A DNA stretch of 64,000 bases from a virus (IMGVR_UViG_3300046674_000532); one strand, 5' to 3'. Counted from the first letter of the stretch, positions 13,348-54,225 are shown. A program made the numbers and translations. Notes: generated from the sequence alone by a model not told the origin.

Positions 13348-13383
13348 GGCATTGCAATGCCATGCCCGTACCGGTACGGTGAT
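13348..13383 (+). promoter_or_regulatory. promoter-operator motif copy 1
   Basis: GGCATTGCAATGCCATGCCCGTACCGGTACGGTGAT; -35 TTGCAA 13352-57, 17-nt spacer, -10 TACGGT 13375-80; perfect palindrome GGCATTGCAATGCC. Confidence 0.65.
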
Positions 13384-13480
13384 GTATGTCCGGCAAGGAA
13401 CCCCAACCGACAACCCGTCCCCTACCCCAAACGATTCCCTCCCGCCCCTCGCCCCCACAAGGAGGAAACACCCCAACCCA

Positions 13481-13513
13481 GCCCGGCCGCCAACCCCCTG
13501 GCGGTCGGGCTTT
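13481..13513 (+). terminator. stem-loop plus TTT in leader downstream of motif copy 1
   Basis: GCCCGGCCGCC / GGCGGTCGGGC (11 bp incl. one G-U) followed by TTTCC; near-identical element at 14382. Confidence 0.5.
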
Positions 13514-13653
13514 CCTACGCAGGGAACAGTCCGCCGAAACAGGCCGACGATGACCCCACACCGATGGCCGGGCCCTTTCCGTTGCCGACCGACTGTCAGT
13601 GCCGCCCGGCACCATAGACGCCAGAACGCCCAACACCGGCTTGGAGGCCAGTA

Positions 13654-14373
13654 GTGGACGCACCCGACTTCTCCACCCTCACTGACGACCAGTACTCCGA
13701 CCTGCTCACCCACCAGGCGCACCCGCGGTTCCGCGACCCGGACGTCTGGAGCACGCTCACCAGCCCCGAGAACATCGAACGGACCCGTTCCATTCTGGTG
13801 CAGATGCACCAGCGGACCGCGAACGCGCTCGGGCGGAAGAAGTCGGAGCGGGAAGCGTTCGAGCAGGAGTGCCGGGCCCGCGGAGCCGCCGGTAAGGCCG
13901 CCTGGTTCGAGAGCCAGCCCGCGTACGAGAACACGCGGCGCAAGATGGCCGGGTTCCACCAGCTTGTTCAGCAGGCTATCTCCGACGTCGGAAAGATTCA
14001 GAAGGATCACAACCGGGCCGGAAGTCACCTGGTCAGCAACGCAGCCCGGGAGACGCTCCGTCAGCTTGCCGTGGCCGTGCAACGGCACCAAGCCCAGCAC
14101 GCGAAGAGCGGCTCGATCGCGGAGCAGCAGGACTACGAGCTGTGGCAGCTCCTGGACCGTCTCACCGTGCCGTGCGGCCCGAACCATGAGCAGACGAGTC
14201 TGCGGACGATGCTCGACTTCTACTGGACGGACGTCACCCCCATCACGGACACGGAGTCCGGGCGGGAGGCTGCCGAGCGGTCCATGCGGAAGGCGCCGGC
14301 CGGACGGTCCTCCTCGTACACGGGCGTACCGCGGGCCCGGCACCTCGGGAACCAGAAGGACCTCGCCAGCTGA
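13654..14373 (+). CDS. hypothetical protein
   Basis: ORF track 239 aa; GTG start with GGAGG RBS. Confidence 0.65.
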   Translation: MDAPDFSTLTDDQYSDLLTHQAHPRFRDPDVWSTLTSPENIERTRSILVQMHQRTANALGRKKSEREAFEQECRARGAAGKAAWFESQPAYENTRRKMAGFHQLVQQAISDVGKIQKDHNRAGSHLVSNAARETLRQLAVAVQRHQAQHAKSGSIAEQQDYELWQLLDRLTVPCGPNHEQTSLRTMLDFYWTDVTPITDTESGREAAERSMRKAPAGRSSSYTGVPRARHLGNQKDLAS

Positions 14374-14381
14374 AGCACCCA

Positions 14382-14414
14382 GCCCGGTCGCTATCCTCCT
14401 GGCGGCCGGGCTTT
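14382..14414 (+). terminator. stem-loop plus TTT, sequence-related to 13481..13513
   Basis: GCCCGGTCGC / GGCGGCCGGGC followed by TTTCGG; shares CCCAGCCCGG...CTGGCGG.CGGGCTTTC with the earlier hairpin. Confidence 0.5.
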
Positions 14415-14461
14415 CGGCGTTCCTGCCCGCGATGTCAGACTCGGCTGGGAAGATGCCCACT

Positions 14462-15772
14462 ATGTCCGCACGCACGACGAAAGCCCTCGAGGCCTGGCAT
14501 GAGCTGAATGATCGCCAGCAGGGCACCCTCGCCGTCATCTACGACCTGGACCAGGCCACCGAGTCCGGCCGCCGGCAGAACGCAGCACAGGGACAGTACG
14601 ACAACCGGCCCGCCCTCGAGTGGCGCAGTATCGACTTCGCACACGAGCCCGCCATGCGGAAAGTGTTCGGCTGGACCATGCTGCAGGAGCGCCTGATGTG
14701 GCGGGGCTGGGACAACCAGGGCAACGGGTCCACCATGGCCGCGCTCGAACGTCGCGGCCTCATCGCCCGCGATGGCCGGCCCACCCGCTTCGGGCGCATG
14801 CACACGGTGCGTCTGACCCGTGAGGGCCGTGCCGCAGCCCAGGCTGGCACCAGCCTCAACCCCGGTGGACCGCGTAAGGCTGCGCTCGGTCATCGGTCCT
14901 GGGAAGTCCTCGCCCTGCTCTGGTCGGCCCACCTCCGCGGGAAGCCGCTGAAGTGGGGGTATTCCACGACCATCGAACGGGCGCTGATCGACAAGCACGT
15001 GCCGCCCCTGGCTCGCAGCGTTCTCGGCGGCTACGAGATCACCGACCGCGGCCGCGACTTCTACCGCGAGCATCATGCCGCCCATACGGCCGCGCACCCC
15101 GATGTCCGAGCACCCCACCCCGACGGCGCTGAGGCCGAACCATGGCCAGCGGAAGCTGACAAGCTGCTCACCCAGCACCGGCAGCTCTATCTCGCCCTGC
15201 TCGACGCGTGGGGGAACGTCTGCAAGGCCCGAAAGGCCGCCGCGGAGGAGTCCGTCGCAGCTCTGCCCAAGGTGTCGGACGCTCTTCCTGACGTGGTCGT
15301 TGCCCAGATGGAGACCCGGCACAAGCTATGGTGCGAAACTGCCCAGCAGCGGGCCGGTCTCACCGCCGAGCATGCCGAAGACCTCAGTGCTCGAGCCGAG
15401 CATGCCGCCCGGGCCTACGCGGTCGCAGCCCTGACCGCCTACCGGGCGGCCGTCACCCAGACCGACCCGCTCGAGACCATGACGCCCCCCGCCCCGGACC
15501 CTGACACGTGGGACGAGCCGCCCCTGCCGACGCCTGCGAAGACCGGCGTCAACGCCATCGACGCCGCAGCGGCGAAACTGCACGCGACCGTTGTGGGCAG
15601 ACCGATCAAACGGCGTGGCCCAGCGCCCACACGGCGCACTCGCCGGGGGAACGTTCGTGTCGCAGAGAAGCCATCCGCAGAGCCCGGAGCAGCCCTGTAC
15701 GCCCTCGCGGAACACTGCCGCGGGCATGTCCAGGACGGCTCTCTGCTGCGCCGCCTGCATCCGGCGGACTGA
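14462..15772 (+). CDS. hypothetical protein (possible winged-helix N-terminus)
   Basis: frame of track ORF 13964..15772 (5' part is R/P-rich shadow); ATG 14462 has GGGAAGA upstream; alt ATG 14432 or 14453. Confidence 0.55.
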   Translation: MSARTTKALEAWHELNDRQQGTLAVIYDLDQATESGRRQNAAQGQYDNRPALEWRSIDFAHEPAMRKVFGWTMLQERLMWRGWDNQGNGSTMAALERRGLIARDGRPTRFGRMHTVRLTREGRAAAQAGTSLNPGGPRKAALGHRSWEVLALLWSAHLRGKPLKWGYSTTIERALIDKHVPPLARSVLGGYEITDRGRDFYREHHAAHTAAHPDVRAPHPDGAEAEPWPAEADKLLTQHRQLYLALLDAWGNVCKARKAAAEESVAALPKVSDALPDVVVAQMETRHKLWCETAQQRAGLTAEHAEDLSARAEHAARAYAVAALTAYRAAVTQTDPLETMTPPAPDPDTWDEPPLPTPAKTGVNAIDAAAAKLHATVVGRPIKRRGPAPTRRTRRGNVRVAEKPSAEPGAALYALAEHCRGHVQDGSLLRRLHPAD

Positions 15773-15866
15773 CACGCCAAGCAGACTTCCATCTTCCCTC
15801 CCCGCTCTGTCAGTGCCCGCTGCCAGACTGGCCGTTGCCGACAACGACCCGAGGGGGAACCTCCGC

Positions 15867-16430
15867 GTGGACACCGAGCAGCAGCCCGCACAGCCCGGGG
15901 AACTCTGCACCTGCGGCCGGCAAGCCGTCACCGTCTACAGCACCGAGCAGTACGGCGACGTCGGGCACTGCGGCATCGACGGCGCCGCCTCCCGGCCCGT
16001 CCTGCCCTGCCCATGGTGCGGCACCAGCGAACCCCACAAGCAGCCGTGGGGCGACCCGACGAAGTGCCCCGACTACCGGCTCCGTGTTGATCGAAGCGAA
16101 GAGGATTCGCCAGTGCCGCAGCCCATGGTCGTGACCCGGAACGCGGACGGCAGCCACAGCCCCGCCTACGACGAAGCCTGGCCCGAGGGCACCCAACTGG
16201 AGTGGCATGCCGGCATCGTCGCCCTGCAGACCGGCCTGCGCATCGAGGTGACCCGGTCGTCGGGCATCCAGACGGGCGTGCCGACCGTTCCGGGCGTCGT
16301 GGCGAAGGAGTCGTACCACCTGTCCCTCCGCGGGCCGAAGACGCTGACGGGCACCGGGCCCATCAGCTTCGACGACGCGTGGTGCTTCCTCGACGGCGTA
16401 GCCGCAGGCGTCCGCGCGATGCAGACCTGA
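15867..16430 (+). CDS. hypothetical protein with N-terminal Cys cluster
   Basis: frame of track ORF 15591..16430; GTG 15867 after GAGGGGGAA. Confidence 0.55.
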   Translation: MDTEQQPAQPGELCTCGRQAVTVYSTEQYGDVGHCGIDGAASRPVLPCPWCGTSEPHKQPWGDPTKCPDYRLRVDRSEEDSPVPQPMVVTRNADGSHSPAYDEAWPEGTQLEWHAGIVALQTGLRIEVTRSSGIQTGVPTVPGVVAKESYHLSLRGPKTLTGTGPISFDDAWCFLDGVAAGVRAMQT

Positions 16431-16567: not shown

Positions 16568-16834
16568 TCATGCCCGGCCTGGCCGCCGTGGCGCCTTGGC
16601 GTTCTGTTCGTGGCCCGGCCAGTCCGGGTCGTCCTCGGCCGTCGGCAACTCCCGGTGGCCCTCGCTCCACGCATTGACCCACCCGCAGTGGCCACAGGCG
16701 TATCTACCGTTTACCCCGGCGAGCTGGCTGCCGCACTGGCGGCAGTCTGTGGAGGTGATCTCCTGGCCCTCCAGGAACGCGGCTGCGGCGGCCGCCGTCT
16801 CGGGCGCGGTGCGGCTGCTCTGGTCCGTGGTCAC
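16568..16834 (-). CDS. zinc-ribbon protein
   Basis: ORF track 88 aa; CRQCG...CGHCG. Confidence 0.55.
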   Translation of the reverse strand: MTTDQSSRTAPETAAAAAAFLEGQEITSTDCRQCGSQLAGVNGRYACGHCGWVNAWSEGHRELPTAEDDPDWPGHEQNAKAPRRPGRA

Positions 16835-17064: not shown

Positions 17065-17099
17065 GGCATTGCATTGCCATGCCTGAACAGGTACACTGA
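17065..17099 (+). promoter_or_regulatory. promoter-operator motif copy 2
   Basis: GGCATTGCATTGCCATGCCTGAACAGGTACACTGA; -35 TTGCAT, 17-nt spacer, -10 TACACT 17092-97; 40 nt upstream of GTG 17137. Confidence 0.65.
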
Positions 17100-17136: not shown

Positions 17137-17691
17137 GTGCCGACAAACGCGACCCACACCGTGACCCGCGAACCCAAACACCCCGGCTACGACACCCTTG
17201 GCGACGCCAACAACTGGGGAGAAGAGTTCTACCTCCTCACCAACGGCGAACCCATCGGCGGAACCTACTGGTGCCCACCCGGCCCGAACATCGAAGCCGG
17301 CAAACAGTGGGTGTCCTACGGCCCCGCCGGATACTCCTTCAGCCACACCACCCGCGAAGACGCCGAACAGGTCCAACTCGCGGCCGCCGGCATCACCGCC
17401 ACCACCCCCACCGAGACCGTGTCCACCCCGGCCCCGGAACTCCCCGAAACAAAGCCCCTCCCTATGACGTGGGACCAAGCCCTCACCGAAGCCAAGGAGA
17501 AAGGCGTCAGCCGCTGCAGCGACCCCGCCCTCATGGCCTCCTTCTGCGACGGCTCCATCCAGCACCTGGCCGGCGCCGTATCCCCCCAGCTCGTCTGGGA
17601 GGGAGCCCAGAAGAAGGGCCTGTCGGCGAAGGAACTCGGACGCTTGTGCAGTACGGACGTGATGGCCGTCTCCGACCTCATGTGGATCTGA
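17137..17691 (+). CDS. hypothetical protein
   Basis: frame of track ORF 16972..17691; GTG 17137 after CAGGGGG. Confidence 0.6.
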   Translation: MPTNATHTVTREPKHPGYDTLGDANNWGEEFYLLTNGEPIGGTYWCPPGPNIEAGKQWVSYGPAGYSFSHTTREDAEQVQLAAAGITATTPTETVSTPAPELPETKPLPMTWDQALTEAKEKGVSRCSDPALMASFCDGSIQHLAGAVSPQLVWEGAQKKGLSAKELGRLCSTDVMAVSDLMWI

Positions 17692-17700
17692 ATTCCAACC

Positions 17701-17728
17701 GTTGCCCTCGCCTCCGGGCGGGGGCAAC
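17701..17728 (+). terminator. GC-rich stem-loop
   Basis: GTTGCCCTCGCC tccg GGCGGGGGCAAC, 12-bp stem with one G-U. Confidence 0.55.
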
Positions 17729-17787
17729 GTGCGCCCGGAACCGGGCCACCCTCACGTACACCACCCCAGCAACAGCAAGGACCCAGC

Positions 17788-18441
17788 ATGGCCAGCCGCA
17801 TCACCTACCGAGGCCGCGTCTGCAAGGTGCTCGCCGCCCGAGGCAAGCCCTACCACCGCAAAATGGTCATCAACGGCTACACCATCAACCACGGCTGGCA
17901 GGGCAACGACGACCAGGCCATCAACTGGTTCCGGACGGTCATCGACCTGATGGACGCCGCCGGCGGGCCCGGCAACAGCGCCGAACGCCTCCACTACACC
18001 GCCCCGCACTGGTGGGAGCCCGGCACCTTCGACGTCAACCCCAACGGCGACGCCACCCAGCCCGGCGGCGTCTGCCTCTGCTCCCGGTGCGTCATCGCCG
18101 ACGTCGACGGCGGCAAAGCCCGCTTCGCGCCCCTCCACCCCGACGCCTGCCAGCACTGCCACCAGCGCGCCGACGGCCACGACGACGACGTCCACCTGGA
18201 ATGGCACCGCTACACCGAACCCACCGAGCAGCAGCGGACCGGTCGGCAGGCCACCGTCGACGAGTTCCAGCAGGACGACGACCCCGACGAAACCATGTGC
18301 GACGCGATCTATCACCGCACGATCCGCGGCTACCTCAGCCCGCCGCGCTGCCTGTGCTTCGCCGACCACCGCGACGCCAACAACCCCGACTTCCACGAAG
18401 ACGCCCGCGGCTTCCGCTGGGCCCGCACCATCCCCGCCTGA
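17788..18441 (+). CDS. Cys/His-rich hypothetical protein
   Basis: ORF track 217 aa; AAGGA upstream of ATG. Confidence 0.65.
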   Translation: MASRITYRGRVCKVLAARGKPYHRKMVINGYTINHGWQGNDDQAINWFRTVIDLMDAAGGPGNSAERLHYTAPHWWEPGTFDVNPNGDATQPGGVCLCSRCVIADVDGGKARFAPLHPDACQHCHQRADGHDDDVHLEWHRYTEPTEQQRTGRQATVDEFQQDDDPDETMCDAIYHRTIRGYLSPPRCLCFADHRDANNPDFHEDARGFRWARTIPA

Positions 18442-18447
18442 CCCCCG

Positions 18448-18471
18448 GCCCCCGCCCACCCGGGCGGGGGC
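18448..18471 (+). terminator. GC-rich stem-loop
   Basis: GCCCCCGCCC accc GGGCGGGGGC, perfect 10-bp stem; right arm shares CCGGGCGGGGGCAA with 17701 hairpin. Confidence 0.55.
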
Positions 18472-18534
18472 AAGCCCACGCCCAAACCGGGCCACGCTAG
18501 AACACCCAGCCTCCACGCCCCTGGGAGCAGCCCC

Positions 18535-18936
18535 ATGACCGGCCCAACCCCGCCCTACCTGATCCCCGTCCGCCGGTCCGCCGTCCCCGGATACGGCATG
18601 CAGGGCCTGTGCCCGCAATGCCGCGACTGGACCGGCATCTGGCCGCACGACCACCCCCACGGCGCGGGCCGCCTCGACAACCACGCCACCGAGAAGGGCT
18701 CGTACTGCCCGATGTCCCGAACGGTCATCACCAACGAGGCCGCCATCGCACGCGACAGCCAGCTCAACCCCCAAGAACAGGCCGCGTACAACGCCACCGC
18801 GAAACGTCTGCACGGCTGCCGAGGCCCGCGCCTCGACGAAAACTGCTGGCACCCCGCCTGCCACCAGGCCGTCGCGAAGGGTCTCGTCTGGACGCTCGAC
18901 GGCTGGAAGCCGGCCACCCGCATCGCCCTGTTCTGA
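18535..18936 (+). CDS. Cys-rich hypothetical protein
   Basis: ORF track 133 aa. Confidence 0.6.
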   Translation: MTGPTPPYLIPVRRSAVPGYGMQGLCPQCRDWTGIWPHDHPHGAGRLDNHATEKGSYCPMSRTVITNEAAIARDSQLNPQEQAAYNATAKRLHGCRGPRLDENCWHPACHQAVAKGLVWTLDGWKPATRIALF

Positions 18937-18956
18937 CACCCGGGAGGACCCGACCC

Positions 18957-19496
18957 ATGACCGACCCCACTCCGCAGCCCACCATCCGCGAACAGCTACT
19001 GAACGCCCTGGACTTCTCCTACTGCCAGGGCCTCGGCTACGGCACGCCGGAGGAACTCGTGGCCGCCTACGACGCGACGCTGCTCCCGCCCACCGACGAG
19101 GCCGCGCTCCGTGACCGCATCGCCGCAGCCATCGACGGCGTCTTCACCCGCTGGCAGACCGGCCTCGGCAACCAGCGCCCGCAGGACGCCATCCGCGACG
19201 CGGTGCTGGCCGTGCTGACCGCGCCCACTGACCGGGCCGCGATCCTGCGGGAAGCCGCCGACTGGTTCGACCGGTACGACGTGGACTCCGCGCGGGAGCT
19301 GCGCCGCCTGGCCCACGAGGCGCAGCAGCCCGAGACACAAGCGCTCCGGATGCCGCGCTGCCCCCGCTGCATCCACGACGAGCGCACGCGCGCCGTCCTC
19401 CAGCAGTCAGCGATGGAGCTGTACCCACCGGACCACGACCCCAACTGCCCGCACCACCAGCCTGCCGCCGTAGCCCAGCCCGACGGGGAGGCCTGA
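18957..19496 (+). CDS. hypothetical protein
   Basis: frame of track ORF 18609..19496; ATG 18957 after GGGAGGA. Confidence 0.6.
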   Translation: MTDPTPQPTIREQLLNALDFSYCQGLGYGTPEELVAAYDATLLPPTDEAALRDRIAAAIDGVFTRWQTGLGNQRPQDAIRDAVLAVLTAPTDRAAILREAADWFDRYDVDSARELRRLAHEAQQPETQALRMPRCPRCIHDERTRAVLQQSAMELYPPDHDPNCPHHQPAAVAQPDGEA

Positions 19497-19499
19497 CCC

Positions 19500-19670
19500 A
19501 TGGCCACACGTAGTGGAGGCTTCACCGGGATCAGCCTGGCGGGCCGGTGGGAATGCGGCGGCTGCGGCGCGTCCGGCGACGGCTGGTACGACGAGGACGA
19601 CGGCCTCGTCCTGAACGACGAGAACGGCCAGCCCTTCGCCCCCGACGAGCACGAGTGTGGGGAGGGCTGA
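19500..19670 (+). CDS. acidic Cys-containing micro-protein (56 aa)
   Basis: below track cutoff; MATRSGGFTGISLAGRWECGGCGASGDGWYDEDD...; GC3-rich; 3 nt after upstream stop. Confidence 0.45.
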   Translation: MATRSGGFTGISLAGRWECGGCGASGDGWYDEDDGLVLNDENGQPFAPDEHECGEG

Positions 19671-19672
19671 CC

Positions 19673-19960
19673 GTGGCCGCCGTAGCCCTGCCGATCCCCG
19701 TCGTCGTGACCCGCCACCAGTGCCCGTTCTGCGGGATCACCCGGGCGAAGCGGTCCGCAATGGTCGCGCACATCGCCCGCTGCTGGCACAACCCGGCCGC
19801 CCGCGCCTGCAAGACGTGCGTGCACTACACGCCACCCGAGGATGGACCGTACCCGCAGCACCCCGACTGGCCCGAGGACTGCTCGGCCGGGCAGCTCATC
19901 GGCGACCTACCCAACAGCAACTGCCCGAGCTGGCAGTCCGGCACGGAGGCCACCTCATGA
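19673..19960 (+). CDS. Cys-rich (zinc-finger-like) protein
   Basis: frame of track ORF 19547..19960; GTG 19673; CPFCG...H..ARCWH...CKTC. Confidence 0.55.
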   Translation: MAAVALPIPVVVTRHQCPFCGITRAKRSAMVAHIARCWHNPAARACKTCVHYTPPEDGPYPQHPDWPEDCSAGQLIGDLPNSNCPSWQSGTEATS

Positions 19961-20271
19961 TCTGGCTCGTCGTCGCGGCCGCGGTCCTGGCCGGCTACGG
20001 CATCGGCCGCTACCGGCCCGGCCACCGCGCCTCCAACTGGGCGTACTGGAGGCAGTACGACCGGACCATCCGCCGCCACAGCACCCGCTGGTGGGCCCGG
20101 TGGGCCGTCCTGTCCGCGGAGAACATCGGCTGGCTGACCACCCACCCCATCCGCGGCTGGCACGCCTGGCAGCACCGCAACGACCCGCCCCGCAGCCCCG
20201 CACCCACCTTCGACCCCGCCTGGGCCGCCAAACGCCGCGCAGCCGCGGCCGCCGAGAAAGAGGGCGCCTGA
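19957..20271 (+). CDS. membrane-anchored Trp/Arg-rich protein
   Basis: frame of track ORF 19657..20271; ATG 19957 (ATGA overlap); N-terminal TM MIWLVVAAAVLAGYGIG. Confidence 0.55.
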   Translation: MIWLVVAAAVLAGYGIGRYRPGHRASNWAYWRQYDRTIRRHSTRWWARWAVLSAENIGWLTTHPIRGWHAWQHRNDPPRSPAPTFDPAWAAKRRAAAAAEKEGA

Positions 20272-20390
20272 TGGCCGACGTCCTCACCGGCCTCGGCCTG
20301 GGCGGCTTCATCATCGCCGTCACGTTCCTCGCGACCGTCGACTGGATCCACCCCGGCCCGCACACCGCCCCCGAAAGGACCCGCCCGTGA
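20271..20390 (+). CDS. single-TM micro-protein (39 aa)
   Basis: 3' end of track ORF 19842..20390; ATG 20271 overlaps upstream stop; MADVLTGLGLGGFIIAVTFLATVDW. Confidence 0.4.
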   Translation: MADVLTGLGLGGFIIAVTFLATVDWIHPGPHTAPERTRP

Positions 20391-20989
20391 CCAACCCGGA
20401 CGACCCGGCATGGCGGTGGGAGTTCCGCGGCGAAGACTTCGTGTACGCCCGCCTCGCCGAAGCCCAGACCGCCGCCGAACATCTGCCCGCCAGCGAAGCC
20501 CGCGAGACGGAACTCAACCGGATCGACTCCCTCTACCTCATCGCCAGCCAGCACAACATCTGGATCGACGCCCGCGGCCGATCCCACGCCGCCTGCCTCA
20601 CCTGCGGCGGTGCCGCAGGCGTCCCCTGCACCACCATGTGCGGCCTCGCCCGCCTCTGGCGCACCCACCCCGACTACGTGCCGGCCTGGAACCAGACCAT
20701 CGACAACCCCCGCCACCGGGGCAGCATCTACGCCGACTACGTGAAGCGCACCACGATCTGCCAGGAACGCAAAACCGAACTCGACGCCTTCTACGACCGC
20801 TTCGACCTCGAGCAGGCCGACGGCGGAGAGCGGTGGCGGTGCAAGGCGTGCGGTGCCCACGGCGAGACGTGGAAGCCGATACCTGGCGCCTACGACTACC
20901 CCCACGCGATCGGCACCGCGAAGCACCGGCACCCCGCCTGTGACCAGTCCGCCCTCGAGAACAAGGAGCCCACCACGTGCGAGCCCTGA
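20387..20989 (+). CDS. Cys-rich hypothetical protein
   Basis: ORF track 200 aa; GTG overlaps upstream stop. Confidence 0.6.
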   Translation: MTNPDDPAWRWEFRGEDFVYARLAEAQTAAEHLPASEARETELNRIDSLYLIASQHNIWIDARGRSHAACLTCGGAAGVPCTTMCGLARLWRTHPDYVPAWNQTIDNPRHRGSIYADYVKRTTICQERKTELDAFYDRFDLEQADGGERWRCKACGAHGETWKPIPGAYDYPHAIGTAKHRHPACDQSALENKEPTTCEP

Positions 20990-21387
20990 CCGTGAAGTTC
21001 CCGTGGAGTGCGGCCATCGCGCACGGGGAGAAGCGCATCGAGAACCGCCGCAAGCCGATCCCACCGAAGCACCTCGGGACGACCATCCTCATCCACGCCG
21101 GCGCCGCCGAAGACGAGAACGCCCTCCCCGCCGACACGATCCGGGACTGGCCCCGGCACTTCTCCGCGATCGTCGCCGTCGCCACCCTCGCCGACTGCCA
21201 CCAGGCTGCCAAGCCGCGCTGCTGCGCCCCGTGGGGATTCCCCGACACCTGGCACTGGGTCCTCGATGACGTCCAGGCCATCCCGCACCCGCCCCGACCG
21301 GTCCGCGGCCAACTGGGCCTGTGGACCGTACCCGACGACGTCCTGGCCGCCGTACAGCGGAAGGTCCAGCTGGAGGTTGCACCGTGA
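20977..21387 (+). CDS. ASCH-domain-like protein
   Basis: ORF track 136 aa; MRALTVKFPWSAAIAHGEKRIENRRKPIP...GQLGLW matches the ASCH beta-barrel pattern. Confidence 0.65.
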   Translation: MRALTVKFPWSAAIAHGEKRIENRRKPIPPKHLGTTILIHAGAAEDENALPADTIRDWPRHFSAIVAVATLADCHQAAKPRCCAPWGFPDTWHWVLDDVQAIPHPPRPVRGQLGLWTVPDDVLAAVQRKVQLEVAP

Positions 21388-22316
21388 GCGGGAAGAACGA
21401 GGCACGGGAGCTGCTCCTCGACCTGATCGGCGCGGCAGACGCCGCGAACCAAGGAACCACCCCCGAGCAGGCCGTCGACGACGCCATCCACGAGGCGCTC
21501 CTCAACCAGCCTGCGCTGCGTACCTGCCTGGTTCCTGGCTGCCTCCGCCAGTACGACGCCATCACCACCATGACCGGCGAGACCCCGCCACGGCCCGAAT
21601 GGTCCGGGAAGGGATGGGCCACGCTCGGGTCCGGCAGCATCTTCCCCGCAGGCGGTCACATCTGCCCCGACCACAAGCCGTTGGTCACCGACCACTTCCC
21701 CCGCCGCCTGAAGCTCCCCAGCGACCGCTGGAGCGTCGATTGCGCGTGCGGCTGGACACCAGCACCGCAGACCTGGCACGGCGTCCTCCGCGCCCTGTGG
21801 GAGCAGCATCTGCTCACCGTGGACGGGAAGCTGCCCCCGGCGCCGCCGCTCACGGACCCTGAGCACCGGATCCCCCTTGCCGAGCACACCGAAGCGACGC
21901 TGGCCGAGCTGTACGACCGGCTGTGGGACGCCGAAGCGGACCAGCAGGAGACCCGCGACGTCGCCCGCGCCTGCATGGTCACCTACACGGTCGCCGTCCC
22001 CGCCCTCCTGGGCGTCAAGACATCCCTCGAAGCCCTCCGCACCCGCATCACCCTCGACTCCCGCGACTGGACCGCCGACAAAGTCGATGCCCTGCTCTAC
22101 GCCGTCCTCGTCGGAGCGAACTGCGAGGACGACACCCCCGGGCACGTCCACAACGACATCGACTGCGCCAGCGACCAGGGCCTGTGGGACCTCGCGAAGC
22201 AGCACGACATCCCCACCGACCAGACCATCCAGGCCAGCCACCACCGCTGGTGGGTCGCCAACGCCATCAAGGCCGCCACCCAGATCGAGGACGCCAACAA
22301 GCCGAAGGAGAGCTGA
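21384..22316 (+). CDS. hypothetical protein
   Basis: frame of track ORF 21321..22316; GTG 21384 (GTGA overlap). Confidence 0.6.
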   Translation: MSGKNEARELLLDLIGAADAANQGTTPEQAVDDAIHEALLNQPALRTCLVPGCLRQYDAITTMTGETPPRPEWSGKGWATLGSGSIFPAGGHICPDHKPLVTDHFPRRLKLPSDRWSVDCACGWTPAPQTWHGVLRALWEQHLLTVDGKLPPAPPLTDPEHRIPLAEHTEATLAELYDRLWDAEADQQETRDVARACMVTYTVAVPALLGVKTSLEALRTRITLDSRDWTADKVDALLYAVLVGANCEDDTPGHVHNDIDCASDQGLWDLAKQHDIPTDQTIQASHHRWWVANAIKAATQIEDANKPKES

Positions 22317-22318
22317 CC

Positions 22319-22696
22319 GTGCCCGAACAGCCCTGCCCGTTCTGCGAGATCAACACCGGTCGCGCGCCCGCCAAGTTCGTGGCCGAGTGGTCCGACGCAA
22401 TCGCGATCGTCCCGCACAACCCCGTGGTCGTCGGACACACCCTGATCATTCCCAAGACCCACGTCACCGACTTCGCGGACGACCCCGAGGTAACCGGAGC
22501 GACCGTGCGACGGGCAGCGCAACTCTGCCGCGACCTCGACCTGGTCCACGCCAACCTCATCACCAGCAAGGGCGTGCACGCCACGCAGTCCGTGTTCCAC
22601 CTTCACGTTCACCTCGTTCCTCGAGCGGCGAACGACGGCCTGGCCCTGCCCTGGTACAGCGGCCGCAGCAGCAAGACCACGGAGGGAACCCGATGA
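22319..22696 (+). CDS. HIT-family (histidine triad) nucleotide hydrolase/transferase
   Basis: frame of track ORF 21923..22696; GTG 22319; CPFC zinc motif and HLHVHLVP histidine triad. Confidence 0.8.
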   Translation: MPEQPCPFCEINTGRAPAKFVAEWSDAIAIVPHNPVVVGHTLIIPKTHVTDFADDPEVTGATVRRAAQLCRDLDLVHANLITSKGVHATQSVFHLHVHLVPRAANDGLALPWYSGRSSKTTEGTR

Positions 22697-23259
22697 CCGA
22701 CCACGAAAGCGTGCTCAGCGCGCAGGACCCCGAGAATGTCGCCATCACCGCCAACACGATCCAGGACTCCCTGCTGTCGATCCCGGTGGGCAACAGCCAG
22801 CCCCTCGTCACCATCCATCCGGACGGCCGGCTCGAGTTCGGCGACGACTACCAGCCCGACGAGGCCGCGCAACTCTTCTGGCAGGCCGTGCAACGCTTCG
22901 CCCCCACACAGATGGAGCAGCAGTTCGGCAAGCCCCTCGCGGCCCGCATCGACGCCGAACTGGCCGCCGGGGAGCGCGCGCAGCAGTGGGTGGAGGCCCT
23001 CACCGAGGCCGTCGTCCTGTGGCGAAACCGGCCGGGCGGCGACGTCGGCCTCGCCATCGCCCTCTCCGGCATCCTCGACACGGACAAGCCCGACCCGCCC
23101 GCCGCGACCGCACTGGTGCGGGTGCTGAAGGAGTGCGACCGCATCGAGCGCGCGGTGAAGAGCAGGCCGACCAGCCCGGACTTCGACGGCGCGTACCTGG
23201 CCTGCCTGCGCCGCATCCGCCAGGCCGCTGGCGTCCTGCCCGCCGACGAGGAGGACTGA
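22693..23259 (+). CDS. hypothetical protein
   Basis: frame of track ORF 21877..23259; ATG 22693 (ATGA overlap). Confidence 0.6.
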   Translation: MTDHESVLSAQDPENVAITANTIQDSLLSIPVGNSQPLVTIHPDGRLEFGDDYQPDEAAQLFWQAVQRFAPTQMEQQFGKPLAARIDAELAAGERAQQWVEALTEAVVLWRNRPGGDVGLAIALSGILDTDKPDPPAATALVRVLKECDRIERAVKSRPTSPDFDGAYLACLRRIRQAAGVLPADEED

Positions 23260-23260: not shown

Positions 23261-24046
23261 GTGGTGATGATCAATGGGCGGGAGTACTGGAGCACCCGCA
23301 CCCCGACCAAGACCGGCTTCGCCGTCGCCTTCCCCCGCACAAACCCACGCCGCGCCGAGCCCGCAACCACAGCCCAACGACGCCGAGACGACCGCATCGC
23401 CGACCGGATGCAGGATGAGCGGATCGTCACCCTGGAGGCAGGCACGCTGGTGGTCTTCCAGCGGTCCGCGTATCGCGTGGTGGAGGTCCGGGAGATCCCG
23501 CCGGACCTGTGGGGCGAGAAGTGGGACCAGGCCTTCGAGAAGGAACTGGGCCGATGGGACTCCTGGAAGCTGGACGCCCACCCGTTGGACAAGCGCCCGT
23601 GGGGCGACCGGCCCACAGCGGAGACGTGGCGGGACAGGCCCGTCAGCGTCGTCCTGCGACCCGACCCTGACGGTCAGGCCGCCGTCTCCACCGTGACGCT
23701 CGCCTGGGGCGCCCCGGAGGCCTGCGACACCGTGTCCACGGAGGCGCTGTCGTCGACGCCGTGGTCGGGGGACAGGGCGAACTTGTACGCGAGCGCGGGC
23801 AGTGACTCCGCCCCGAACAGGCTCTTCAGCCGCTCGAGGTGCCGGGTCAGTGTCCGCACCCCGAACCCGAGCCGGGACGCGGTCGCGGTCTGGGGGCGGC
23901 CGGCGACCATGTCCCGCAGTATCTCCCGGTCCAGCCGTGTCGTCCGCACCTCGCACGCCGCGACGGGCGCCGTATCCGGTATGCGGGGCTCCCCCGACCA
24001 AGGGCGGGCCTGGTGCCAGATGTCGGCGTACACGCGGGCCATGTAG
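23261..24046 (+). CDS. hypothetical protein; last about 370 nt lie antisense to the LuxR-type gene
   Basis: ORF track 261 aa; starts 2 nt after upstream stop; N-terminal 135 aa look like a normal W/K/E/F-containing protein; no stop before 24046. Confidence 0.5.
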   Translation: MVMINGREYWSTRTPTKTGFAVAFPRTNPRRAEPATTAQRRRDDRIADRMQDERIVTLEAGTLVVFQRSAYRVVEVREIPPDLWGEKWDQAFEKELGRWDSWKLDAHPLDKRPWGDRPTAETWRDRPVSVVLRPDPDGQAAVSTVTLAWGAPEACDTVSTEALSSTPWSGDRANLYASAGSDSAPNRLFSRSRCRVSVRTPNPSRDAVAVWGRPATMSRSISRSSRVVRTSHAATGAVSGMRGSPDQGRAWCQMSAYTRAM

Positions 24047-24777
24047 GCGACGACCGCCCGGTCCGTGACATGCCACGCCGCATGAGCAGCGGAGCCTTCG
24101 ACCACATAGTCGGAGATGAATGCGTGCCGCCGGTCCACGATGATGATCCGCTCAAAGGGTGCGAGGAGCGTCCGGTACTCGGCTCCCTCCGCGGCCATCG
24201 TCCGCGCCCACTCCTGCGTCACCTCATCGTCCCGGACGGTGTCCCGGTACAGGGTCTGGCACCGGATCCCGCGCCGTAAAGCGTCGGTGTCCCGGCGGAC
24301 CGCGGTCAGCATGTTGGCCCGCGAGCGGGGGCCGTTGGGCTGCGCCGACAGGATCTCCGAACGTGCCGCACCGACCACGTCCTGGATCCGGGCGTTGACC
24401 GTCTCCGGATCGGGAAGGAACTGCGCACCGCCGGAGGAACGTTCCGCCGACCTTTCGAACTCCACCGACAACTGGTCCTGCACCGCCGGGAGTGCGGCGA
24501 TCTGCGCCAGCCTCGATGCGGCGGCCGCCAACTGCGCCGCCGTGTGCCGGGCCATCGCCGGCCCCGGCTCCAACGCCACCCACACCTCAGGATGATCCGC
24601 ATCCCGGACCACCAGACCCAGCGCCTGGAGCTTCGCCAACTCCGGGCCCCGGCCCCACTCCTCGCCCCCCAGCCCCTCACACCGGGCGATCCGCCCATAC
24701 AGGCGCACCTCGGCACCCGTCAGAAACGAATCCAGCCCCTCCATGCCTGTCTGGGCAGGCGTGTTGCCCGATCTCAT
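23674..24777 (-). CDS. LuxR-family transcriptional regulator with about 290-aa N-terminal sensor/winged-helix region
   Basis: frame of track ORF 23674..24831; C-terminal LDREILRDMVAGRPQTATASRLGFGVRTLTRHLERLKSLFG is a LuxR/GerE HTH; ATG 24777 (GGGGGA upstream) preferred, alt 24744 or 24831. Confidence 0.7.
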   Translation of the reverse strand: MRSGNTPAQTGMEGLDSFLTGAEVRLYGRIARCEGLGGEEWGRGPELAKLQALGLVVRDADHPEVWVALEPGPAMARHTAAQLAAAASRLAQIAALPAVQDQLSVEFERSAERSSGGAQFLPDPETVNARIQDVVGAARSEILSAQPNGPRSRANMLTAVRRDTDALRRGIRCQTLYRDTVRDDEVTQEWARTMAAEGAEYRTLLAPFERIIIVDRRHAFISDYVVEGSAAHAAWHVTDRAVVAYMARVYADIWHQARPWSGEPRIPDTAPVAACEVRTTRLDREILRDMVAGRPQTATASRLGFGVRTLTRHLERLKSLFGAESLPALAYKFALSPDHGVDDSASVDTVSQASGAPQASVTVETAA

Positions 24778-26693: not shown

Positions 26694-27347
26694 TCACTGC
26701 CGGTACGGCGGAAGAACCTGCGCCACCCGCGACGCCAGCGCCTTCTTCGCCGCCCTGGACCGGGCCGTCGGCGCCCCCCTCAGCACCGGTACGAGCACCT
26801 CAGAACCCAGCACGTGCACCAGTCCGGCCCGGCCCGCCACACTGGCCTGCAACCGACCGCCCGCCACCGGAGACCCGTACACCACCAGGACCGGCCACAC
26901 CGCCCCCTCCGGCAGCCCCAACAGCTTGGCCACCGTCCCCGCATACCGGGCCACCTTCTCCACCTCCCCATGCCGGTCCTCGCCACCGCAGTGAACCCGG
27001 CCGGCCACCACACGGGTCGGCCATGACCGACGCCACGCCTTCGTGTCCAGCACCACGACCGCGGTCCCGCACGGGGAGACGAGGACGTGGTCCAGGTTCG
27101 CGCGTCCGTGGCCCGGTAATCGCCGGTCGTGGAGGACCCGCCAGCCGTGCCAGCGCAGCCGACGTAACCGGCGGGCCGTCTCCCGCTCCGCCTTGGCGCC
27201 GCGGTCCCAGCGGGCCGCCACAGCGTCCGCACGCACCGCATCCGGGTTCATCCCCGCCCAGGCCGTGACACGCCGCCACAGGCCCCGCCGGGCGCGCGCA
27301 CGGATCGCCGCAGCCTCCCGCGCCGCCGACCCACCAGCCGCCGTCAC
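26694..27347 (-). CDS. NERD-domain nuclease-like protein
   Basis: frame of track ORF 26694..27461; GTG 27347 (GTGA overlap); AERETARRLRRLRWHGWRVLHDRRLPGHGRANLDHVLVSPCGTAVVVLDTKAW matches the NERD pattern. Confidence 0.7.
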   Translation of the reverse strand: MTAAGGSAAREAAAIRARARRGLWRRVTAWAGMNPDAVRADAVAARWDRGAKAERETARRLRRLRWHGWRVLHDRRLPGHGRANLDHVLVSPCGTAVVVLDTKAWRRSWPTRVVAGRVHCGGEDRHGEVEKVARYAGTVAKLLGLPEGAVWPVLVVYGSPVAGGRLQASVAGRAGLVHVLGSEVLVPVLRGAPTARSRAAKKALASRVAQVLPPYRQ

Positions 27348-30142: not shown

Positions 30143-30156
30143 GCGGTGGTACCTCC

Positions 30157-39458: not shown

Positions 39459-39496
39459 GGCGGTGGGGATCCGTTTCGTGTCAGGGGGCGGTGGGG

Positions 39497-39912: not shown

Positions 39913-40278
39913 TCAGTCGAGGTCCGGGGCGGGGTGCCGGTCGGCGCACAGGGGGCATTGGCGGATCGGCAGGTTGAAGCCGTTGGACTCTTCGATGGTT
40001 CGGGCGTCGGGGTCGGCGTTGTCGAAGACGGCCGGGCAGACGCAGGTGCACTTGCAGGGGAGGACTTCGCCGCCGTACTCGATGTGGAGGCCGGCGAGCG
40101 CGGCGACGCCGAGCATCAGGGAGTTGTATTCGCCTGCGTCGCTGGTGTCGTCGGCGCGCTGGAGGAGCTGGTCGAGGCGGTTCTGCTGGGTGGCGGTGAG
40201 GTCGCGGTAGTCGACGCTGGTGGGCGTCTTTCGGGCGTGCGTCATCAGGGCCACGGGGTCTCCTGGGGTGCAAGTCAC
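39913..40278 (-). CDS. Cys-rich hypothetical protein, first gene downstream of motif copy 4
   Basis: ORF track 121 aa; GTG 40278, alt ATG 40245. Confidence 0.55.
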   Translation of the reverse strand: MTCTPGDPVALMTHARKTPTSVDYRDLTATQQNRLDQLLQRADDTSDAGEYNSLMLGVAALAGLHIEYGGEVLPCKCTCVCPAVFDNADPDARTIEESNGFNLPIRQCPLCADRHPAPDLD

Positions 40279-40320: not shown

Positions 40321-40356
40321 ATCACCGTACCCGTTCAGGCATGGCAGTGCAATGCC
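40321..40356 (-). promoter_or_regulatory. promoter-operator motif copy 4
   Basis: minus-strand reading GGCATTGCACTGCCATGCCTGAACGGGTACGGTGAT; -35 TTGCAC (40347-52), 17-nt spacer, -10 TACGGT (40324-29). Confidence 0.65.
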
Positions 40357-40434
40357 CACGCTGTGCGGGCATGAGAAAGGCCCCGCCCCGGAAGTTCGGG
40401 TGCAGGGCCTGTGGGGGTGCGGACAGTGGGCCGG

Positions 40435-40662
40435 TCAGTCCGGGTACAGCTCGGCATGGACGTCGAGGAGGTCGCTCCACGACGCGTAGTCGGTCCGGCC
40501 GCACCGGATGATTTCCACGGGATCCGGCTTGTGGGCCAGGGCGTGCTTCTTCAGGGTCCGCGGGGCGACCGGGCGGCCCGTCTCCTCGAGGAGGTCACAG
40601 GCCTCGCGGAGGCTGACGAGGTCCGACGTGGCGGCGTAGGGACTCGGGTTGGCGATGGCCAT
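40435..40662 (-). CDS. small HTH protein (excisionase/AlpA-like)
   Basis: ORF track 75 aa; SDLVSLREACDLLEETGRPVAPRTLKKH pattern. Confidence 0.5.
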   Translation of the reverse strand: MAIANPSPYAATSDLVSLREACDLLEETGRPVAPRTLKKHALAHKPDPVEIIRCGRTDYASWSDLLDVHAELYPD

Positions 40663-51536: not shown

Positions 51537-52167
51537 TCAGGCGGCGGAAATGACCTCGTCCGCGCCATTCATCGGGATACCGAACCCGGCAGCGACAACA
51601 TGCTGGAGGACAACCGGAGTACGGGAGAAACAGGCAACAGGCGGGACGGCGGTCAGTTCTCTTCTTGATCCGGCTTGGGGGCCAGCCGAGATACAGCCGA
51701 AAGGGATATGCAGGACCTCGTGCGAGGAGTCGTTCCCTCTACTGGGCAGCTCGTCCTTCGGTACGGGGCGGTGATCACTGCTCGCCGCCCTCGGCGCCTG
51801 CGGCCAGGAGGCCGGCAAGGCTCTGGAGGTGGGCGGCCGGGCCGAGGTCGGTGTAGAAGGAGCCTGCGGGCAGCGGGGGCAACTGCGCGGGCACGGCCTG
51901 GTGCACGAGCGGCTGGTCCGCCAGACCGAGCCCCTTACCGGCGCGCGACCACGCCTGGCACGGCGGAGACCAGATCTGCTTCTTCGACCGCCCCTTGAAT
52001 GGAGCGGTCGGGTACTGGGCGACGTCGCACTGGATAGTCAGGTGGCCCGCCGCCGCGCGGGTCTTGCACGCTGCGGTGTCCCACTCCAGCCCCACATCGC
52101 GAAGGCCAAGCAGCCGCAGCCCTTCCGACCAGCCACCAGGCCCTGCGAACCCGTCGAGGATCGTCAT
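51537..52167 (-). pseudogene. DNA (cytosine-5) methyltransferase remnant
   Basis: ORF 51775..52167 carries motif I (DGFAGPGGWSEG) and motif IV (SPPCQAWS) then loses similarity and stops at 130 aa; no ENV or TRD motifs; region 51590-51780 has lower GC; whole span too short for an intact enzyme. Confidence 0.6.
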
Positions 52168-53123
52168 CAGGCGGCGCTCCTCTCTGCGGCGTTGGCCTGG
52201 GCGGCCTGTTCCTTCAACTGGGCGATGCGGCGCGTCAGGAGGTCCTCAACGCGCACGTCCATCTCGCCGACCTTCACCGTCTCGTCCAGAAGGCCGTGCT
52301 TCCTGGCGTCGGCAAGGTTCTGCTCGCACGACAGACGGTTCTTCCACCCGGCGTTGATTTTCTCCTTGAGGCCTTCCAGCGTGGTCCCCGCAGCCTGCTC
52401 CTGCCGGTGCACGTCCTCCCGCTGCTCTTCCGTAGGACTGGCAGGCACGGCATCTACCGCTTCCTGCTTCGCGGCCGCTACATCCGGCTCGGCCTCCACC
52501 TTGTCGTCCTTGAACTCGGCCTCCTTCGGCGCCTTCCAGTACGGAAGCGACGACTGCACCACCGGGGACAGACGGCCCTTGTTGTACAGGGACAGGCCGA
52601 ACTGATCACCCAGGTTGGTGGCCGCCCGCTTCAAGGCCTGCGAGTCGGCGGTCTTCAGCGCCAGGTCGTGAGCATCGGCCCGGGACGGCTGGTTCGTGGC
52701 GTCCCCGGTGGCGATGCCGTGCCAGTGGCCCAGCTCGATCCCGTCCACCTTCACCGACAGGCGAACCGCGACGCGGTAGATGACCGTCCACGCATCGAAG
52801 GGGTTCCCGTACGGGCGACCGTTCTTGTCCTTCTTCTGGTGGTCCGGGATGCAGGTCTCGGCGATCAGCGTCGACTCCAGCAGGTCGGTGTCGTGCCCGC
52901 CGAACCCGAAGATGCGGATCAGGTAGCGCCGAATGTCCCAGGCCTCCATGTGCGCGAAGCCCTTGCCGTCCGAACCCACCCGGTCCGGGTCAACGGGGCG
53001 CAGCAGCTGGGCGATCTGGAGGTCGGACAGGGTGCCCAGGCGGCGGGCCGGGGCCTGGTTTTGGGTGTGCGAGGTGGGGCCCTCCGCCGTCGTGCTGGCG
53101 AGGGCCTCGGTGGCCGGGGCCAT
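52167..53123 (-). CDS. Rad52/Rad22-family single-strand annealing protein
   Basis: ORF track 318 aa; HMEAWDIRRYLIRIFGFGG and ADSQALKRAATNLGDQFGLSLYNKG are family signatures. Confidence 0.7.
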   Translation of the reverse strand: MAPATEALASTTAEGPTSHTQNQAPARRLGTLSDLQIAQLLRPVDPDRVGSDGKGFAHMEAWDIRRYLIRIFGFGGHDTDLLESTLIAETCIPDHQKKDKNGRPYGNPFDAWTVIYRVAVRLSVKVDGIELGHWHGIATGDATNQPSRADAHDLALKTADSQALKRAATNLGDQFGLSLYNKGRLSPVVQSSLPYWKAPKEAEFKDDKVEAEPDVAAAKQEAVDAVPASPTEEQREDVHRQEQAAGTTLEGLKEKINAGWKNRLSCEQNLADARKHGLLDETVKVGEMDVRVEDLLTRRIAQLKEQAAQANAAERSAA

Positions 53124-53206
53124 GAGGTCTCTCCTATGAGGTTGTGCGAAGTACGGGGCGCGGGGCCCGGCTGGTGTCGGCGTCCAGGCCGACCCCGCGC
53201 AGACGG

Positions 53207-54028
53207 CTATGCGGCGGGCTCGCCGAGGCGGTCCTTCAGGATCGCCACCGCGATCGAACCGGGGAACATCTTGTAATCCAGGGCCTCAGATACCCGCGGC
53301 TCCACGTCACGGAGCTGCTCGAGCAGGTCGGCGTTCACCCGGACCGGCAGCCACGTCGCATCGTCCAGCGACCGGCTACCCGGCGCCGCCTTCGACGGAC
53401 GCGGCGGCAGCCACTCCCCGCCGGCCAGCGAACGGATCCCGTCCTCCAGAACCTTCTGCAGCGCCACGCCCTGACGGCCGGACTCGGCAATGAGGTGCTG
53501 CTCCAGGGGCTTCAGGACCCGCAGCTTCAGCATCTCCACACCGACCGGACTGTCGACGCCCAGCTCCTCCGTCATCCACAGCAGAGCGATACCGCCCTCC
53601 GTGATGGGATAGCCGGCCTCCTCCGACAGCGACGCCAGCCGCTCCTGCACCTGCGCCCGCAGGTCCGCGTCGATGTTGACGGTCATCACCGCGCGGCCGG
53701 GGCGCCGTTCACCCTTCAGCCAGCGCTTCGTCTTACGCTGCGGCGGCAGCCACCTGCCCTCCAGCACCAGTCGGTAGCCGTCCTCGACCACATCGGTCAG
53801 CAGCACACCCAGCTCGTCCGCAGCCGCCCTCAGGGCGTCCCGCATATCCGTGTTCGTGGTGATGGTCAGCGGCGACTTGCCGGGCCCGTCAGCGGGAGCG
53901 GCGTCACGCAGCAGCGTCCACCCGCCCCGCACCAGGACCGCCCGGACATCGGCAGCCGAGTCGGGATGGCCGGCGTCCTCCAGACGCTGGGCGGCGAGGG
54001 TCAGACGGTCGTGGATGGGACGGGCCAC
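53207..54028 (-). CDS. hypothetical protein with internal duplication
   Basis: frame of track ORF 53207..54199; GTG 54028 after GAGAGGA; two similar halves (VEDGYRLVLEGRWLPPQRK...NIDADLRAQVQERL vs LEDGIRSLAGGEWLPPRPS...RVNADLLEQLRDV). Confidence 0.55.
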   Translation of the reverse strand: MARPIHDRLTLAAQRLEDAGHPDSAADVRAVLVRGGWTLLRDAAPADGPGKSPLTITTNTDMRDALRAAADELGVLLTDVVEDGYRLVLEGRWLPPQRKTKRWLKGERRPGRAVMTVNIDADLRAQVQERLASLSEEAGYPITEGGIALLWMTEELGVDSPVGVEMLKLRVLKPLEQHLIAESGRQGVALQKVLEDGIRSLAGGEWLPPRPSKAAPGSRSLDDATWLPVRVNADLLEQLRDVEPRVSEALDYKMFPGSIAVAILKDRLGEPAA

Positions 54029-54117
54029 GTGGAGCGGTCCTCTCGGATGGCACCTCCCCGGCTCCTTGCGGGCCGGCGGGTGCGTGGGGGCGTTGGCCAC
54101 GCCAGTTTCCTCCAAAC

Positions 54118-54137
54118 GGCAGTTCAATGCCATGCCC
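54118..54137 (+). promoter_or_regulatory. degenerate copy 5 of the palindrome (operator-like only)
   Basis: GGCAGTTCAATGCCATGCCC aligns to the 5' half of the motif; no credible -10 follows. Confidence 0.4.
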
Positions 54138-54189
54138 GGAGGCTCTGGCAGTGGGGCGGCACCCCAACAACCCCAACGATACTGCCACA

Positions 54190-54225
54190 GGCATTGCAAT
54201 GCAATGCCTCACGGGTCTATGGTGG
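54190..54225 (+). promoter_or_regulatory. promoter-operator motif copy 6
   Basis: GGCATTGCAATGCAATGCCTCACGGGTCTATGGTGG; -35 TTGCAA 54194-99, 18-nt spacer, -10 TATGGT 54218-23; 31 nt upstream of GTG 54254. Confidence 0.6.

Follow-up and report, generated by a model that had tools for sequence, protein, structure and literature searches.

A repeated promoter-overlapping operator and a candidate tandem ribbon-helix-helix repressor in a Streptomyces phage-plasmid of the pZL12/pSLE1 type

The viral sequence IMGVR_UViG_3300046674_000532 was analysed over a stretch of 64,000 nucleotides (hereafter the window), which by its gene content and synteny belongs to an extrachromosomal Streptomyces prophage, i.e. 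a phage-plasmid, of the pZL12/pSLE1 type. Five operons in this window start at promoters that carry one and the same palindrome over the -35 box, and each of these strong copies is oriented towards the operon that it heads. We consider it likely, judging from sequence comparison and a modelled protein structure, that a single element-encoded repressor, most probably the product of the gene g093, controls all copies through these promoter-overlapping operators.

The window has a G+C content of 69% and about 110 genes according to our own codon-usage gene call. Megablast gave only weak and patchy matches to Streptomyces plasmids of 85-105 kb, including pSLE1 and the records of strains W9 and W75, and no match to the window was obtained from the phage collection. 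By tblastn the window is collinear with the region 28.5-90.4 kb of CP108843.1 (30-80% protein identity), a replicon that encodes terminase, capsid, tail and lysin proteins together with ParA and DnaB. It has been reported that pSLE1 is homologous and syntenic to the plasmid-phage pZL12 (PMC4487206). Phage-plasmids of this type are Streptomyces replicons of about 85-100 kb that combine phage structural genes with ParA/ParB; the affiliation of the window is indicated by the confinement of its matches to plasmids of about this size, the gene content of the collinear CP108843.1, the presence of ParA and ParB in the window and the synteny with pZL12/pSLE1. JGI metagenome contigs, the longest of 97 kb, encode the exact product of one window gene. 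The window thus comprises about two thirds of a pZL12-type element, mainly its non-structural part. Scans of the window for Rfam families and tRNAs found nothing.

The repeated element is a 19-bp palindrome, GGCATTGCA-N-TGC(A/C)ATGCC, with strong copies starting at 13348, 17065, 33517, 40338 and 54190 and a degenerate sixth at 54118. The original prediction, made from this sequence alone, had listed six copies of a promoter-plus-palindrome motif, and reading of the sequence confirmed all of them in position and strand. When the window was scanned for the pattern GGCATTGCANTGCMATGCC with at most three mismatches, 12 strand matches at six sites were recovered against 0.13 ± 0.44 expected from 100 dinucleotide-preserving shuffles, and the looser GCAT-N9-ATGC found only the five strong sites (0.49 expected). 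Alignment of the copies gives a 9-N-9 symmetry over 19 bp, or 21 bp with the flanking A/T, around an unconstrained central base, which reads A, T, G, C and A across the strong copies. The 14-bp palindrome that had been proposed as a perfect 5' half of the motif is perfect in copy 1 only, and has to be replaced by this longer symmetry.

All five strong copies contain a -35/-10 pair directed at the downstream gene, as had been foreseen. Positions 5-10 of the palindrome form the -35 (TTGCAN), which is followed by 17 nt of spacer (18 nt at 54190) and a -10 of the form TA(C/T)(G/A)(G/C)T, realised as TACGGT, TACACT or TATGGT; the palindrome hence overlies the -35 and the upstream part of the spacer. 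Both the hexamers and the 17-18 nt spacing fit the housekeeping consensus of Streptomyces. A strict scan with the Escherichia coli consensus over 13000-18000 and 33300-40700, the regions of copies 1-4, detected no promoter, this consensus being uninformative at 69% GC. The conservation of the spacer, already remarked upon in the prediction, is real, but it reflects the right half-site of the palindrome, and the 8-9 nt separating the palindrome from the -10 vary freely. From the -10 to the start codon there are 30-45 nt, or 69 nt at copy 4 with the better start at 40254, and 273 nt at copy 1.

The two copies in front of g093 are arranged differently from the others. The palindrome of copy 6 (operator O1) is perfect, and TTGCA is therefore present on both strands, so that one operator serves two back-to-back promoters. 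Copy 5 at 54118, which had been listed as a degenerate copy, is not a decayed promoter but a second operator (O2) that lacks a -35, is located in the g093 leader and is kept in relatives; the leftward transcript from O1 crosses it before reaching g093. Coordinates of the operators, promoters and transcription units are listed in Table 1.

Table 1. Operators, promoters, genes, transcription units and hairpins discussed in the text (positions in the window)
Feature	Position	Strand	Description
Operator copy 1	13348..13366	+	GGCATTGCAATGCCATGCC; rightward promoter with -35 13352-13357 and -10 TACGGT 13375-13380
Operator copy 2	17065..17083	+	-35 17069-17074; -10 TACACT 17092-17097
Operator copy 3	33517..33535	-	Perfect palindrome; -35 33526-33531; -10 TACGGT 33503-33508
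Operator copy 4	40338..40356	-	-35 40347-40352; -10 TACGGT 40324-40329
Operator O1 (copy 6)	54190..54208		Perfect palindrome common to two back-to-back promoters
O1 rightward promoter		+	-35 54194-54199; -10 TATGGT 54218-54223
O1 leftward promoter		-	-35 54199-54204; -10 TATCGT 54176-54181
Operator O2 (copy 5)	54118..54136	-	Variant operator lacking the -35 TTG; located in the g093 5' leader, 5 nt upstream of the ribosome-binding site (RBS) GGAGG (54109-54113)
g093	53207..54100	-	Candidate repressor, 297 aa; start revised to GTG 54100
Operon 1	13654..16430	+	Three genes; 273-nt leader; GTG start 13654
Operon 2	17137..23259	+	About 13 tightly packed genes
Operon 3	26694..33464	-	About 16 genes, including a LuxR/GerE-type protein (29574..29948)
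Operon 4	33605..40254	-	DUF5131 (phage Gp37/Gp68; 36534..37547), WhiB-like (35055..35732), SSB (33605..34132) and others
Rightward operon from O1	54254..57958	+	First gene (54254..54703) encodes a small WYL-domain protein
Leftward operon after g093	51775..53123	-	Rad52/Rad22-family recombinase (52167..53123); C5-methylase-like fragment (51775..52167)
Hairpin in copy 1 leader	13480..13511	+	13-bp stem, then CUUUCC; dG -31.9, z -4.5
Terminator-like hairpin	33559..33586	-	With T-run; closes the upstream operon, just before operator 3
Terminator-like hairpin	40378..40410	-	Followed by CCUUUCUC; just before operator 4; z -3.4

The arrangement is conserved among syntenic relatives. In CP108843.1 the same palindrome and -10 (type A) are present at all five syntenic intergenic positions, and O2 is present as well, despite flanking DNA that is too diverged for megablast. 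The equivalent of copy 1 (L001 41675 in our locus numbering) stands beside the homolog of the small open reading frame (ORF) 13121..13285, that of copy 2 is at L001 43776, that of copy 3 (L002 11232) comes just after the SSB gene, and that of copy 4 is at L002 19938. Beyond CP108843.1, type-A copies were detected in pSLE1 of S. leeuwenhoekii, several IMG/VR contigs and one S. chiangmaiensis contig. Both the leftward -10 at O1 (TACTGT) and the O2 variant site, 72-79 bp from the main copy, are kept in pSLE1, CP108843.1 and two further relatives (L123 and L142). We rejected DNA looping between O1 and O2, as helical phasing is not kept over this range of spacings.

More distant relatives have kept the promoter position, the TTG, the spacing and the -10 TAnnGT(GG), and their palindrome is a different one. 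For instance, the contig 3300046660_000510 (type B) carries TTGTATTGCG(C/T)(G/A)CG(C/T)AATAGA at the sites that correspond to copies 1, 2, 3, 4 and O1, and the type-B palindrome is likewise found at the four positions recovered (1-4) from the contig 3300046492_000458. The region between the homologs of g093 and of the WYL gene was collected from about 25 elements, and at least eight operator types were distinguished among them (one that differs in type from those of the window is TATTGCGCGCGCAATA). In every element examined, O2 is of the same type as its own O1 and lies just before the RBS of the minus-strand gene, with the TTG usually changed to TGG. A constant promoter with a palindrome exchanged wholesale fits an element-encoded repressor with diversified cognate operators, as known from heteroimmune phages. 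This concerted switching supports the part of the original prediction that had one element-encoded regulator coordinating the units, but lends no support to its suggestion of a dedicated sigma factor or activator.

Among the neighbouring genes that were compared, only g093 diverges together with the operator type. Its product is 25% identical to the counterpart in the type-B contig 3300046660_000510, compared with 72% for the WYL protein (g094), 58% for the Rad52 recombinase, 94% for a protein with an XRE-type helix-turn-helix (HTH) and TPR repeats (g015, 8094..9299) and 77% for the first gene of operon 4 (g075). In the same-type CP108843.1, on the other hand, g093 is kept at 40% identity, and g094 and g015 are without homolog. 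The revised GTG start of g093 has its RBS 8 nt upstream, is in frame and yields the conserved N-terminus, and the full 297-aa form is covered by six homologs in the protein search. A family search from the g093 alignment returned only same-type relatives.

The predicted structure of g093 points to a ribbon-helix-helix (RHH) protein. The AlphaFold2 model (pLDDT 83, built on 24 homologs) begins with a disordered basic tail (residues 1-26) and three helices; the remainder is made up of four beta-alpha-alpha units, i.e. the units of an RHH fold, with strands at 75-83, 136-144, 188-196 and 248-256. Its best Foldseek matches in the PDB are chains of about 105-120 residues from the F-plasmid relaxosome (probability 1.0, E = 0.03, TM-score 0.53-0.63 on the target), which we take to be the tandem RHH protein TraY, as the search output names only the complex. 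The archaeal-virus protein AvtR, another tandem-RHH protein, was also matched, and the sequence identity of both to g093 is 16-20%. A profile search of PDB sequences gave the VapB26 antitoxin (E = 0.011), which is an RHH protein too. Four units are found in g093 of the window and in some others, while most relatives have two and a length of 182-202 aa.

In Arc, Mnt and CopG, two paired RHH units place a two-stranded sheet into one major groove, and a pair of these modules occupies sub-sites separated by roughly a helical turn; this matches the 9-N-9 operator. The first beta-strand was compared with the operator type. Among the 11 elements whose operators are of the form GCATTGC...GCAATGC, nine have PL(T/S)x in this strand, one has VALS and one ALSLT. 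The strand reads (G/A)L(W/F)M in the five elements with CCATTGCGCA..CAAG operators, and every remaining operator type, each represented by one element, has a different first strand. The first ~25 residues of the g093 homologs (MANAPTRPPxRPRSxRRPPRGPR) are kept across all operator types, and it is the DNA-reading part that varies.

Building on the motif, its geometry, the synteny, the concerted type switching and the predicted fold, all of which are established here, we propose the following mechanism. Each copy would be a housekeeping-type promoter whose -35 and upstream spacer half lie under a palindromic operator of 19-21 bp, from about -39 to -21, and a single repressor would bind all copies and block RNA polymerase. 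At least six transcription units spanning about 28 kb, including the SSB, Rad52-type recombinase, DUF5131 and WhiB-like genes, would thereby come under common control. The four RHH units of g093 may form two DNA-reading modules, one per half-site and about one helical turn apart, and relatives with two units would need to dimerise. The gene itself is probably transcribed leftward from the promoter that shares O1, with O2 in its leader, which would result in negative autoregulation. Repression with negative autoregulation is suggested because the site covers about -39 to -21 of promoters that by themselves appear strong, because O2 lacks a -35 and lies downstream of the start site, and because g093 is preceded by its own operators.

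Several points weigh against this proposal. The covariation of operator and g093 is confounded by linkage: the two are inherited as neighbours, so that part of it reflects linkage and phylogeny and does not prove contact. Neither g093 nor any of its 33 homologs belongs to a Pfam family, and hence no curated RHH model recognises them, and the structural and profile matches are weak by their E-values (0.01-0.03). One homolog (L177) combines an operator with CATTGC arms with the beta-strand AVQM, and the residue-to-base code is therefore not a simple one. We infer the binding of g093 to the sites, its repressive effect and the timing or signal of derepression. It is possible that the regulator is encoded in the ~30 kb of the element beyond the window. 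In addition, g093 stands at the head of an operon that contains a recombinase, an arrangement closer to that of a homeostatic plasmid autoregulator than to that of a classical lysogeny repressor, and the circuit may serve either immunity or dosage control. In the nine relatives for which the gene downstream of the g093 homolog was annotated or compared, this gene encodes a recombinase; hence the circuit is perhaps not the sole lysogeny switch but restrains early functions homeostatically while the element persists as a plasmid, and the other role may be played by the separate XRE-TPR or GntR module near 8 kb.

An alternative that we regard as unlikely, yet as the most serious one, accepts the sites as operators and assigns them to another regulator of the element, such as the XRE-TPR, WYL, WhiB-like, LuxR-type or small HTH-like proteins or one encoded outside the window. 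Several DNA-binding candidates are indeed encoded, part of the element is beyond the window, and in the comparison of two genomes g024, g063, g064 and g065 are, like g093, closer to the same-type than to the type-B relative. Against it stands that the candidates compared do not track the operator type and that, among these genes and g093, g093 alone is flanked by two operators in every relative. The XRE-TPR and WYL proteins, both well kept in the type-B element and absent from CP108843.1, were rejected on the identities given above. The WhiB-like g065 (35055..35732) is 69% identical in a plasmid of a different operator type and reduced to the WhiB domain in a type-A plasmid. The LuxR-type proteins (29574..29948 and 23674..24744), the small HTH-like proteins (9502..9762 and 40435..40662) and g017, g028 and g076 are not correlated with the operator type, and two zinc-ribbon-like ORFs (13121..13285 and 16568..16834) were rejected on comparative evidence. 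Three of the regulators nominated in the original prediction (8094..9299, 54254..54703 and 40435..40662) have thus to be given up, as none tracks the palindrome in relatives; the fourth, 7662..7895, has no Pfam match and is outside the neighbourhood of every copy.

That the palindrome is recognised by an activator or by a sigma-like factor dedicated to it, which would switch on these operons together, seems quite improbable to us. In favour of this reading, the -10 region (TAYGGTGGA) shows a uniformity beyond what a generic promoter requires, and WhiB-like and GerE/sigma-region-4-like proteins are encoded in the regulated operons. However, a dedicated sigma factor is disfavoured because its recognition elements would be conserved, and the opposite is seen, with hexamers and spacing constant across elements and the palindrome swapped. 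Moreover, the site is centred near -30, over the -35 and the spacer, O2 is without TTG and downstream of a start site, and no sigma factor gene was found. The least probable explanation, that the palindromes are centromere-like partition sites, replication iterons, recombination sites or targets of a host factor, could draw on their dispersal over a plasmid that encodes ParA and ParB, but the strong copies are locked in register and orientation with the -35/-10 at operon heads, the ParB is of the HTH type with its gene 10 kb from the nearest copy, and between sister elements the operator type changes together with an element gene, as would not be expected if a host factor bound the sites.

Taking the g093 repressor as the preferred reading, we tentatively extend it, with rather less confidence, to the whole group: the pZL12-type elements may possess single-chain tandem-RHH repressors of a family not described before (two or four units and a conserved basic N-terminal tail) with operators in the -35 boxes of all early operons, in which operator and RHH beta-strand have co-diversified into specificity groups. 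Such groups could define immunity or incompatibility types among similar elements. The TTG-less O2 would act as a decoy operator in the repressor leader that tunes autoregulation, and the divergent WYL-domain protein could be a signal-sensing partner (e.g. for DNA damage) that lifts repression. In the literature that was searched we found no description of the operators or of a g093-type protein in pZL12-type elements.

A close parallel among known systems is found in the Arc and Mnt proteins of the P22 immI region. They are RHH proteins that contact a symmetric operator of about 21 bp through a pair of beta-sheet modules spaced by one turn. Like O1, the operator of Arc is placed within divergent overlapping promoters, and both are negatively autoregulated, as we propose for g093. 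Arc and Mnt are, however, small single-RHH chains that act as tetramers, while g093 has four units per chain (two in relatives), an N-terminal helical domain and a basic tail; no sequence relationship is detectable between them. The P22 system is moreover confined to one locus, whereas one operator type is present here at five dispersed operon starts. The C1 repressor of P1 is likewise a single repressor of an extrachromosomal prophage, with many operators scattered over early replication and recombination promoters, but these operators are asymmetric 17-mers, C1 is not an RHH protein, and host and lineage are unrelated.

Phage phiC31 has a host of the same genus, and its conserved inverted repeats (CIRs) stand where early transcription units begin, in many cases directly behind a terminator; its repressor is an HTH protein with several isoforms, though, and the phage integrates. 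The likeness to phiC31 is one of layout (terminator, operator, promoter). The original prediction had likened the motif to the stoperators of actinophages. This comparison is a loose one: Cluster A mycobacteriophages have many copies of one repressor site and diversified immunity groups, but stoperators are asymmetric 13-bp sites, 20-30 per genome and mostly away from promoters, which stop elongation in one orientation. The window does not have a stoperator system; its sites are symmetric 19-mers, number 5-6 in 64 kb and, in all strong copies, lie on a -35 box.

Plasmid RHH proteins such as omega of pSM19035, ParG of TP228 and CopG are also autoregulated and coordinate plasmid operons via repeated promoter-overlapping sites. 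They differ in binding 7-8-bp repeats set in arrays, or else short pseudo-palindromes, and some of them also bind centromeres, unlike the present element with its separate ParA/HTH-ParB pair for partition. TraY of the F plasmid and AvtR share with g093 the fusion of RHH units in one chain, two of them forming a pseudo-dimer; TraY is an accessory of the relaxosome at oriT and not a repressor of many operons, and g093 has four units.

The regulation of Streptomyces phage-plasmids is hardly studied, and dozens of such elements of 85-100 kb are present in public genomes. The regulatory logic, one repressor with dispersed promoter-overlapping operators, is classical and known, and therefore holds no conceptual surprise; it is the group of elements that is little studied. 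Our survey provides a regulon map with five operators and at least six transcription units, a candidate repressor from a protein family without any annotation, and a natural series of at least eight pairs of operator and protein specificity. This series makes it possible to test how RHH beta-strands read DNA, what determines immunity or incompatibility between these elements, and which genes the plasmid state keeps silent. In Streptomyces engineering, such cassettes of promoter and operator could moreover be of use as compact regulatory parts, their specificities being orthogonal.

The genes of operons 1 and 2 are without functional annotation. No Pfam or PHROG function was assigned to the genes of operon 1, and 20 regulated genes gave only families of unknown function in PHROGs. 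The terminator-like hairpins directly upstream of operators 3 and 4 indicate that the units are insulated from read-through. The long leader of promoter 1 (13381-13653) is C-rich and contains AAGGAGG (13461-13467), which resembles a Shine-Dalgarno sequence but is not followed by a start codon. Its hairpin recurs at the same place with a different stem sequence in two relatives (L171 and L120), and is possibly a terminator, an attenuator or the end of a small RNA of about 125 nt.

Some further observations concern the relatives and the sequence searches. A blastn search of a 43-nt motif against plasmids gave mostly chance matches to Ralstonia, and an 18-mer scan of 185,579 reference genomes gave, among the matches listed, one useful Streptomyces contig. 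This contig (L120; S. chiangmaiensis NZ_BAAAYZ010000148.1, 112001-120000, draft genome) carries a type-A promoter/operator and homologs of three window genes, and may represent another member of the family, either as a plasmid or integrated. The palindrome GGCATTGCANTGCAATGC (18-19 bp) is highly repeated in cyanobacterial genomes of Nodosilinea and Leptolyngbya, with no evident relation to the present element.

The remaining observations concern single genes and regions. The XRE-TPR protein (8094-9299; HTH_31) is divergent from the leftward block 498-7444 and is replaced by a GntR regulator in CP108843.1; the region 7587-9762 looks like a second, independently exchangeable regulatory module. 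Between it and operon 1, positions 9800-13100 have a weak coding signal and few homologs in relatives and apparently form a variable region. The WYL domain of 54254-54703 is partial (Pfam E = 1.6e-5); its gene is divergent from g093 in most relatives, an unrelated gene is found in its place in CP108843.1 and in an S. seoulensis plasmid, and the protein could be a sensor or antirepressor. The WhiB-domain protein 35055-35732 (-) has a C-terminal extension of ~130 residues that looks HTH-like, and some relatives have the WhiB domain only. The 130-aa product of 51775-52167 (-) matches no more than positions 1-85 of the model for C5 cytosine DNA methylases, and may represent a truncated gene or a problem of gene calling. 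Lastly, the small Cys-rich ORFs 13121-13285 (-) and 16568-16834 (-), with a zinc-ribbon-like CxxC...CxxC arrangement, are divergent from and just upstream of promoters 1 and 2, and with 72-75% identity to CP108843.1 their products are among the best conserved.

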